A model generated the notes under the pieces. The model saw only the letters and a list, made by a program, of their open reading frames with translations, searched no databases and was not told the DNA's origin. The translations under genes were made by a program, and so were the position numbers. A stretch of 64,000 nt of DNA from positions 1 to 64,000 of IMG/VR virus record IMGVR_UViG_3300013112_000677, one strand, 5' to 3'. Positions 6,002 through 7,644 of the stretch are shown one piece after another. Each line of letters opens with the position of its first letter. Within the stretch, counting starts at the first letter, position 1. Source of the DNA: a virus.

Positions 6002-6907
6002 TCAGAATGGAATGTCCTCGTCGTCCCCGGCCAGCTCGGACAGGGGGTCTGGGGGTGGGGGGATCAGCAGCTCCTGCCGGAAGGGCTCGACCGGCCCCAG
6101 ATAGGGCGGCCGCTGCTTCCGCTTGCGCCGGATGGTCAGGACGGGGAACGGGGCCAGGGAGGTGTCGCCCACCATCACGCGGTGGAACAGCGGCCCGTTC
6201 GGGCCGACACCTGCGGTGAACCTCCGCATGTTGAACTGCCGGCCGATGCGCTGACCATCGACCTCGCAGTCCTCCAACTCCAGCTGTTGTAGGACCCGGC
6301 GCGGTTCCTTCAGGAGCTGCTTCAGGTGCCTGGGGGAGAACGTGTAGAAGGCCGGGTAGCCCAGCCTGCTCTCCGGGTTGAGGTACTCGGCGGTCCCGCA
6401 CCACCTCTCGAAGCACAGCACTACGTCGAGGTCCAGGAGCACGCAGCACTCGGTGCTCTGGGCCAGCGCGGAGATGAGCTTCCTGGGCGTCTTCTGCCGC
6501 TTGGTCATCCGGAGCAGGTTGTGCATGAAGATGGCGTACTCCACCCGGGGCCGGTACATCGGTCGGGTGGCATGCCTGCGGATCGCGTCGTACAGCTCTG
6601 CCTGCCAGCGGTAGATCTTGTACTGGCTGCGGGGGTTGCCGCCCTTCACCTCGATGAAGGTGGAGCGTTCGCGCTGGACGAGGTCGGGGATGAGGCATGG
6701 CGGTTCCTCGGAGTTGAGGGCCACGCCTCGGTCTGCCTCGTAGGGGTAGACCTCCCCGCCTCTCCAGTGCACGGCGTCGAACAGGTGAGCGGCCATCGCC
6801 TCGTAGAACGAGCCCACGACGTTGCGGGTGTTCTGCACCTTCAGCGGCGCGTCGAGGTCGGTCTGGGCCTCGCTCTCCCCGATCTTCAGCCGGACGTAGT
6901 CGTTCAC
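6002..6907 (-). CDS. PD-(D/E)XK endonuclease-like protein with an SSB-type C-terminal tail
   Basis: G..YE, IPDLV...FIEVKGG motif; ends DDEDIPF; GTG start overlaps the upstream TGA. Confidence 0.7.
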   Translation of the reverse strand: MNDYVRLKIGESEAQTDLDAPLKVQNTRNVVGSFYEAMAAHLFDAVHWRGGEVYPYEADRGVALNSEEPPCLIPDLVQRERSTFIEVKGGNPRSQYKIYRWQAELYDAIRRHATRPMYRPRVEYAIFMHNLLRMTKRQKTPRKLISALAQSTECCVLLDLDVVLCFERWCGTAEYLNPESRLGYPAFYTFSPRHLKQLLKEPRRVLQQLELEDCEVDGQRIGRQFNMRRFTAGVGPNGPLFHRVMVGDTSLAPFPVLTIRRKRKQRPPYLGPVEPFRQELLIPPPPDPLSELAGDDEDIPF

Positions 6908-7644
6908 TCGTCTCCGTACCCGCGCTCCTCGGCGAACAGCCGAGCCGTCTGGGAGAAGCGGGCGTTGTGCGCGATGGCCCGGTGGCTCCAGTCCCACTCG
7001 TCCATGATGAAGGTGCGCACCTCGGCGGTGTTGAGCTTCATCGTCTCGTCCTTGGACATCTCCAGCTGCTTGATGATGGTGTCGTAGTCCCGCGTGTGGT
7101 CCTTCGGCGGGTCGATGCGGACGGCGAGCTGCGTGAGCTCTCCCGCCTCCAGCTGGTCCAGGGTGGCGTTGAGCTTCTCGCGCGCGGCAGCGACGAAGCC
7201 CTCCCGGGCCTCCTGCACCATCGCGGCGTGCTTGTCGCGGTTCTCCTTGAGGACCTTGAGGACCTCGGCCTTGTCGAACGTCTGAGACAGGTTGATGTGC
7301 ATGTCGGAAATTCCTTCTGGTAGTCCAACGCCCGGGGGTAGCCCGAGCAGGTAGGTGTACAGTTCCAGCTTGCGGACCGCGGCGACGTTGCCGAAGCCCA
7401 TTCCTATGTCCTCCCAGGCGCACCACTGCAGGGAGTGGCCGTCCTCGATCTCCTGGAGGTCCTTCAACGTATTGTTCTCGATGACCTGAGTGATGGGCAT
7501 CTCGTATGCGAGCAGCTCCTGCTCGGTCTTCTCGAACGTCTCCGATGCGATGGTGAAGAAGGGGACCTCGAAGAGGGCGGGGGTGTGGAAGCGGAGGCTC
7601 CCAGGCATCCCGAGGAGGGGCCCGAGCCTGAGTAGCCTGCTCAC
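6904..7644 (-). CDS. Chimeric protein: two joined major-capsid-protein fragments fused to a 132-aa helical domain (internal start at 7302)
   Basis: GTG overlaps the polA stop; residues 25-68 and 74-96 match MCP residues 97-140 and 309-331; GAAGGA RBS precedes in-frame ATG 7302. Confidence 0.8.
   Translation of the reverse strand: MSRLLRLGPLLGMPGSLRFHTPALFEVPFFTIASETFEKTEQELLAYEMPITQVIENNTLKDLQEIEDGHSLQWCAWEDIGMGFGNVAAVRKLELYTYLLGLPPGVGLPEGISDMHINLSQTFDKAEVLKVLKENRDKHAAMVQEAREGFVAAAREKLNATLDQLEAGELTQLAVRIDPPKDHTRDYDTIIKQLEMSKDETMKLNTAEVRTFIMDEWDWSHRAIAHNARFSQTARLFAEERGYGDE

Follow-up and report, generated by a model that had tools for sequence, protein, structure and literature searches.

We examined a 64,000-nucleotide stretch of viral DNA (positions 1 to 64,000 of the 73.9-kb IMG/VR record IMGVR_UViG_3300013112_000677; hereafter the window), in which the gene directly following a DNA polymerase gene encodes a small domain preceded by an N-terminal tail made of two pieces of a major capsid protein (MCP). 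The source phage is uncultured and marine, with a genome of about 190 kb, and the contigs that match the locus come from marine metagenome runs. The fusion gene (6904..7644, minus strand) has 246 codons counted from a GTG, plus the stop, and encodes the MCP-like tail, a linker and a domain of the phrog_34511 type. Its GTG start lies on the TGA stop of the upstream family A DNA polymerase gene (polA; 7641..9614, minus strand; Pfam DNA_pol_A, E = 2.4e-94; 3'-5' exonuclease, E = 4.8e-15), forming a GTGA overlap (7641..7644, minus strand) with a GGAGG 4 nt upstream; this overlap had been reported in a preliminary description of the same DNA, and we found it in the sequence as stated. The start of the downstream open reading frame (ORF) of 301 aa (6002..6907, minus strand) is likewise a GTG that overlaps the TGA of the fusion gene. 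Given these GTG/TGA overlaps on both sides, the fusion gene is coupled at both ends, within a minus-strand operon that also encodes an HU/IHF-like DNA-binding protein (5701..5994, minus strand; phrog_379, E = 2.5e-17) and a UvsX-like recombinase (3949..5205, minus strand; phrog_97, E = 5e-27).

The MCP of the window (374 aa, HK97 fold; 57098..58222, plus strand) matches phrog_2522 (major head protein) and represents the source family of both pieces. Segment 1 (fusion residues 25-68; 7441..7572, minus strand) corresponds to MCP residues 97-140 (57386..57517), with 36/44 identical residues (BLASTP E = 2e-22) and 86% DNA identity (E = 2e-45); it covers E-loop/P-domain strands, a short helix and the first half of the spine helix, and includes a core motif of ~20 residues that is retained in distant relatives. 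Segment 2 (fusion residues 74-96; 7357..7425, minus strand) corresponds to a P-domain beta-hairpin, MCP residues 309-331 (58022..58090), with 20/23 identical residues (BLASTP E = 3e-12) and again 86% DNA identity (E = 1e-16). Between the two lies a 5-residue junction (7426..7440, minus strand), and the 168 MCP residues that separate the pieces in the capsid protein are absent. All of these coordinates and counts reproduced those of the preliminary description. A hidden Markov model of the MCP matched the tail in two domains (E = 1.4e-26 and 4.6e-11), which establishes homology of the tail to the MCP family, and no further MCP-like stretches besides the two segments were found in the 73.9-kb record. 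The tail does not amount to a full HK97 capsid-subunit fold, as it lacks the A domain and the N-arm as well as most of the E-loop.

The remaining parts of the protein are of a different kind. Residues 2-24 (7573..7640, minus strand) form an unconserved extreme N-terminus, which differs from its counterpart in the homologous fusion gene L004 (introduced below) by indels and by changes without codon periodicity, with a ratio of non-synonymous to synonymous substitution rates (dN/dS) of about 1.3. Downstream of segment 2, a conserved Pro/Gly-rich linker (7303..7356, minus strand) holds an internal Shine-Dalgarno sequence, GAAGGA (7312..7317, minus strand), located 9 nt before an ATG at 7302. From this ATG a 132-aa helical domain similar to phrog_34511 (6907..7302, minus strand; E = 2.1e-17) extends to the end of the gene; it was modeled with a predicted local distance difference test score (pLDDT) of 96-98 and is likely also made on its own as a short isoform.

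An AlphaFold2 model of the MCP, built on 65 relatives, reached a pLDDT of 76 and matched HK97, D3 and other capsids in Foldseek with a probability of 1.0. In this model, segment 1 spans the strands of residues 96-112, helix 113-117 and the first half of the spine helix (123-158), and segment 2 spans the end of strand 306-319 together with strand 325-329. The secondary structure of the model and the Foldseek matches agree with the earlier proposal that the pieces represent P-domain strands plus the spine helix, the latter being its first half. Across the MCP family (mean identity 64%), 23 positions are invariant in residues 99-140 and 9 more in residues 309-329, so that the copied blocks rank among the densest invariant blocks of the family; the copy in the window retains 21/23 of the segment-1 invariants. 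About 80 MCP genes (L009-L088) of a group of uncultured phages, many on contigs of roughly 185-200 kb, show next to no variation in residues 99-140. The DNA of this region is up to 99% identical among those genes at an overall MCP identity of about 65%, which we attribute to invariant residues with two-fold-degenerate codons combined with codon bias; no obvious RNA element was seen. Among cultured phages, the MCP matched at the protein level only Salmonella phage Arash (29% identity) and three Vibrio phages.

An assembly chimera or a sequencing artefact can be rejected as the origin of the fusion. In each of two runs, an unbroken contig extends across 6000..9700 (1 and 6 differences); pieces with 100% identity, among them 7266..7446, come from a second study, and the fusion-protein cluster occurs on at least 17 contigs (JGI, ENA and Logan). 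Support for the junctions within 7300-7650, which had been named as a check in the preliminary description, is thus provided by single contigs from several runs that span the locus, and the homologous fusion in other phages argues in the same direction. The clearest of these is a phage fragment from another sample (L004, IMGVR_UViG_3300050006_000929), in which a gene of the same architecture, 72% identical to that of the window, directly follows polA, beginning with GTG-AGC 1 nt past the polA stop. The 5-residue junction is not present in L004. The polA genes themselves (7641-9614 in the window and 3921-5966 in L004) are only 45% identical, indicating that the fusion gene has been better kept than its neighbor. 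L004 has neither the 301-aa ORF nor the HU-like gene found after the fusion gene in the window, which, together with the identities of 45% and 72%, suggests that the replication module is mosaic. From the same metagenome as L004 comes another record (L010, IMGVR_UViG_3300050006_000850) whose MCP is 98% identical to that of the window.

The fusion also extends to far more distant proteins. Among 153 members of the helical-domain family that were scanned with the MCP profile, MCP-like N-termini were found in 9 divergent ones; a fusion of this kind, for which the preliminary description had proposed to search related phages, was present both in L004 and beyond it. Both pieces occur in P0001, P0002, P0204/P0276 and P0275, only piece 2 in P0003, and only the core of piece 1 in P0009, P0160, P0182, P0201 and P0258. 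A junction between the segments at roughly matching positions is seen in P0001, P0002 and P0204/P0276, and the C-terminal domains of P0204/P0276 are only about 33% identical; such a junction common to distant members points to a single ancient fusion followed by differential trimming. Furthermore, at positions of segment 2 that read GGC and GAG in the MCP, the chimeras of the window and L004 both carry the rare codons GGA and GAA, which suggests a common chimeric ancestor rather than repeated fresh copies. In our reading of these sequences, the tail would have been acquired once and long ago, in one sub-lineage of the domain family. A recent copy or fresh relic was ruled out by the distant members with the same fusion and junction, and recent conversion of segment 2 from the phage's own MCP was unsupported, given the rare codons common with L004.

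Conversely, none of ten complete genomes with related MCPs (185-199 kb) contained the fusion: eight had no match to the C-terminal domain and two had a stand-alone domain in a different context. This indicates that the fusion is confined to a sub-lineage. A search for related loci with P0160 found none, and the record that contains a further fused homologue (L121), a record 47% complete, had no MCP match. P0003 and P0275, which fall into the same 90% cluster, have near-identical C-terminal domains and tails that differ by indels: P0003 has lost most of piece 1, and P0275 keeps piece 1 with a different junction. These indels suggest that the tail is structurally labile over short time scales. 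In searches of the literature, we found no description of capsid-fragment fusions in phages.

We then asked how the tail has evolved. In the comparison of the window with L004, the MCP-like core (50 codons) has accumulated 12 synonymous and 13 non-synonymous changes (dN/dS 0.22; P = 0.0024 against neutrality), and the linker contains 13 identical residues with 8 synonymous changes (dN/dS 0.14). Third codon positions account for 10/14 changes in the linker (P = 0.004) and for 23/39 in core and linker together (P = 0.0009), and this excess indicates that the stretch upstream of the ATG at 7302 is read as protein in frame. In a second, independent pair of fused genes (L139 and L178), the 20-codon motif has a proportion of non-synonymous differences (pN) of 0.26 against a synonymous proportion (pS) of 0.73, corresponding to a dN/dS of about 0.1 (P = 0.012). 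Judged from these comparisons, the MCP-like core and the linker are under purifying selection, and the earlier suggestion of selection on the peptide is borne out by dN/dS values of about 0.1-0.2 in two independent pairs.

What selection has kept is probably not a folded structure. In an AlphaFold2 model of the fusion protein, residues 1-118 have a pLDDT of 45-66, with two short helices at the MCP positions and no sheet, and the C-terminal domain is predicted at 96-98; the alignment is shallow over the tail, which makes this model weak evidence. In L004, the strand part of the tail has decayed. What persists across the fused lineages is a motif of ~20 residues of the type ELLAYEMPITK-IIEDNS-K, equivalent to MCP residues 115-133, which remains recognizable in members whose C-terminal domains are only 33-40% identical. 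The low pLDDT agrees with the decay of the strands and the persistence of the motif, and we infer from model and sequences that the tail is a linear look-alike peptide on a flexible region and not a folded mini-capsid surface. The minimal capsid surface that had been proposed before is therefore not upheld: the modeled tail has no sheet, and relatives lose the strands or one of the two pieces. A complex prediction of the MCP with tail residues 1-118, run without controls, gave a score of 0.00, a value that speaks neither for nor against binding.

The gene likely yields two products. In all four fused genes for which DNA was available (window, L004, L139 and L178), AAGGA(G) lies 8-9 nt before an internal ATG-CAC, and this ATG coincides with the start of the stand-alone family members. 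The linker has a G+C content at third codon positions (GC3) of 0.50, compared with 0.95 for the genome, because the Shine-Dalgarno sequence is spelled with A-ending codons. A conserved internal Shine-Dalgarno sequence and start thus occur together with coding-type conservation upstream of them, in the core and the linker. As judged from these sequences, a long isoform (tail plus domain) and a short isoform (domain alone) are likely made, which lends plausibility to the two products envisaged earlier from the internal ribosome-binding site and ATG.

The helical C-terminal domain belongs to a very large family. Residues 125-230 match positions 13-118 of the 126 positions of the phrog_34511 profile (hmmscan E = 2.1e-17), which places the protein in this family, and phmmer returned 2786 representative clusters at E ≤ 1e-3. 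Most of these are stand-alone proteins of about 125-135 aa without a capsid-like tail, in contrast to the protein of the window. Members in cultured phages include those of Ralstonia phage RP13, Pseudomonas phage pf16 and Stenotrophomonas phage DLP_6, and the DLP_6 member is located among replication genes, adjoining those for peptide deformylase, DsbA and the sliding clamp. Searches for the function or fold of the domain gave no Pfam match, no Foldseek hit against the PDB below E = 1, an empty PDB profile search and no usable ESM Atlas match; the best result of a wide structural alignment had a Z of 5.3, with generic helical matches only.

Based on these results, we tentatively read the fusion protein as a polA-coupled accessory protein of the replication operon whose ancient MCP-derived tail acts as a capsid look-alike; we consider this possible rather than probable. 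Expression of the protein probably accompanies that of the replication genes and precedes that of the capsid protein. The long isoform would display the invariant MCP motif (helix 113-117, the Pro loop and the start of the spine helix) to a factor that reads unassembled MCP. Made before the capsid protein, it would occupy or bait this reader in advance, and the tail would bring the helical domain to the reader. By analogy with EF-Tu and Lit, which read the Gol peptide of phage T4, the reader may be a host sensor or a folding or translation factor; a phage assembly factor is a less likely candidate, since the operon context would make a host reader somewhat likelier than an assembly partner. 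Decoy, dominant-negative and procapsid-tag functions may all be named as candidate roles.

Several observations weigh against capsid mimicry, and several of them also fit a tolerated relic. In such a scenario, an MCP copy with an internal deletion came to lie between polA and a small gene through an old event of illegitimate recombination, and the peptide itself is functionless, its frame staying open because ribosomes arriving from polA have to traverse it or because changes that break the frame do harm. The tests for selection draw on 22-39 substitutions, and the extreme N-terminus (the first 24-40 residues) is neutral in both pairs (dN/dS 1.3-1.5). GC3 of the copied pieces is 0.83-0.89, below that of the MCP (0.97) and of the C-terminal domain (0.95), which suggests that constraint on them is somewhat relaxed. 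Different relatives have lost different parts of the tail: L004 the strands, P0003 most of segment 1, and five others segment 2. This piecemeal loss together with the neutral N-terminus also fits slow erosion of a tolerated extension. The tail is absent at 78/80 metagenome loci of the domain family; as most family members lack it, it appears dispensable for the basic role of the domain, and the internal Shine-Dalgarno sequence and ATG could make a functional product without it. In addition, segment 1 of L004 has 98.6% DNA identity to some MCP genes, and if the strongly conserved MCP gene now and then donated sequence to the tail by gene conversion, dN/dS could fall even with no selection acting on the tail. 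Finally, early expression is deduced solely from operon placement, and the binding partner is putative. Even so, we regard a functionless relic as rather unlikely, because the synonymous excess in core and linker was found in two independent pairs, because the motif is still recognizable at 33-40% identity of the C-terminal domain, where neutral sequence would not be, and because phage genomes usually purge useless DNA.

If the tail does function, its target could instead lie in head assembly: it might dock on the MCP, the scaffold or the prohead protease and thereby load the domain into heads, or time or limit assembly, including that of a co-infecting related phage. The P domain of HK97-fold capsids contributes inter-capsomer contacts, and both pieces belong to the P domain, an assignment made from the model's secondary structure. 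The head module (50.8-59.8 kb) also encodes a weak prohead-protease-like domain, within a 574-aa protein (51475..53196, plus strand; phrog_18299, E = 1.2e-4). We consider an assembly role unlikely, however, since the fusion gene belongs to the replication operon and lies a long way from the head genes, members of the domain family in T4-like phages are found among replication and early genes, and binding to the capsid machinery is hypothetical. A quite different account, that the MCP gene and the fusion locus have in common a conserved RNA or DNA element and not a peptide, would explain why the segment 1 DNA is 87-99% identical to the MCP genes of distant phages; it is nevertheless very improbable, as synonymous codon diversity at this place in the 80 MCP genes is not below that of other stretches rich in two-fold-degenerate codons, and as changes between the fused genes cluster at third positions, which is a protein-level pattern.

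Capsid mimicry has partial parallels in known systems. T4 gp24, a vertex protein, is a full-length MCP paralogue, and Sid of P4, CpmB of Staphylococcus aureus pathogenicity islands (SaPI) and Ccm of phage-inducible chromosomal islands (PICI) are capsid-remodelling proteins of satellites. Similar to the tail described here, they are capsid-derived or capsid-binding and encoded apart from the MCP gene, but they are late structural proteins with a complete or dedicated fold, whereas the present gene lies in a replication operon and fuses ~67 P-domain residues to an unrelated domain. CapRel-SJ46 is a capsid-sensing defence, and capsid proteins belong to the chief signals that set off the anti-phage sensors of bacteria. 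In T4 gp23, conservation is highest in the Gol region, to which EF-Tu binds and which Lit exploits (PMC3014915). The proposed likeness to the T4 Gol/e14 Lit/EF-Tu system is that a trans-acting factor recognizes, as a peptide and ahead of assembly, a short stretch from the first quarter of the capsid protein that is also its most conserved part; the difference is that Gol acts from within gp23, with no separate Gol-bearing protein described, whereas the peptide of the window phage is carried by a separate protein. An hhalign comparison of the MCP alignment with T4 gp23 gave a probability of 0.2%, that is, no detectable sequence relationship. A recent preprint describes STAND receptors as sensing core phage proteins (bioRxiv 10.64898/2026.01.04.697583); they and CapRel-SJ46 would be readers of the sort for which a capsid look-alike could serve as bait or as a blocker. 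The comparison differs in that such a sensor is hypothetical for the window phage and its marine host, and that a copy of the trigger might activate such a sensor rather than block it.

A broader proposition is that unrelated lineages of large phages repeatedly evolve early self-mimics that display their most invariant capsid peptide as bait for immune sensors or for readers of the EF-Tu or chaperone type. We find this generalization doubtful. If true, it would describe a general counter-defence strategy not yet reported, and the fusion family described here would supply an HK97-type example with a long, baited and a short, unbaited isoform. The fusion also touches the wider question of why the most conserved stretches of capsid proteins are so invariant. 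In practical terms, the tail (~114 residues) or the 20-residue motif offers a clonable handle with which to fish for the reader of the motif. Should the reader be a defence protein, a new type of counter-defence by self-mimicry would follow; should it be an assembly factor, there would be a new link from replication-stage expression to head assembly. The fusion also provides a first lead for a very large family of small phage proteins.

The surroundings of the locus were also inspected. A scan of 5500..11500 for sigma-70 promoters and terminators found none, a blastn search of the locus against cultured phages returned no match, and the sequencing runs listed for the locus include none of RNA. 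The 301-aa ORF had no Pfam or PHROG match. Upstream of polA, a 389-aa Cys-rich ORF (9666-10835, minus strand) with several CxxC pairs is without a Pfam or PHROG match. In L121, an HU-like gene also precedes the fused homologue. The proteins that flank the MCP (56495-57067, 58257-58856 and 58863-59351) had no family match; the one encoded at 58257-58856 contains a long acidic segment rich in Pro and Glu.

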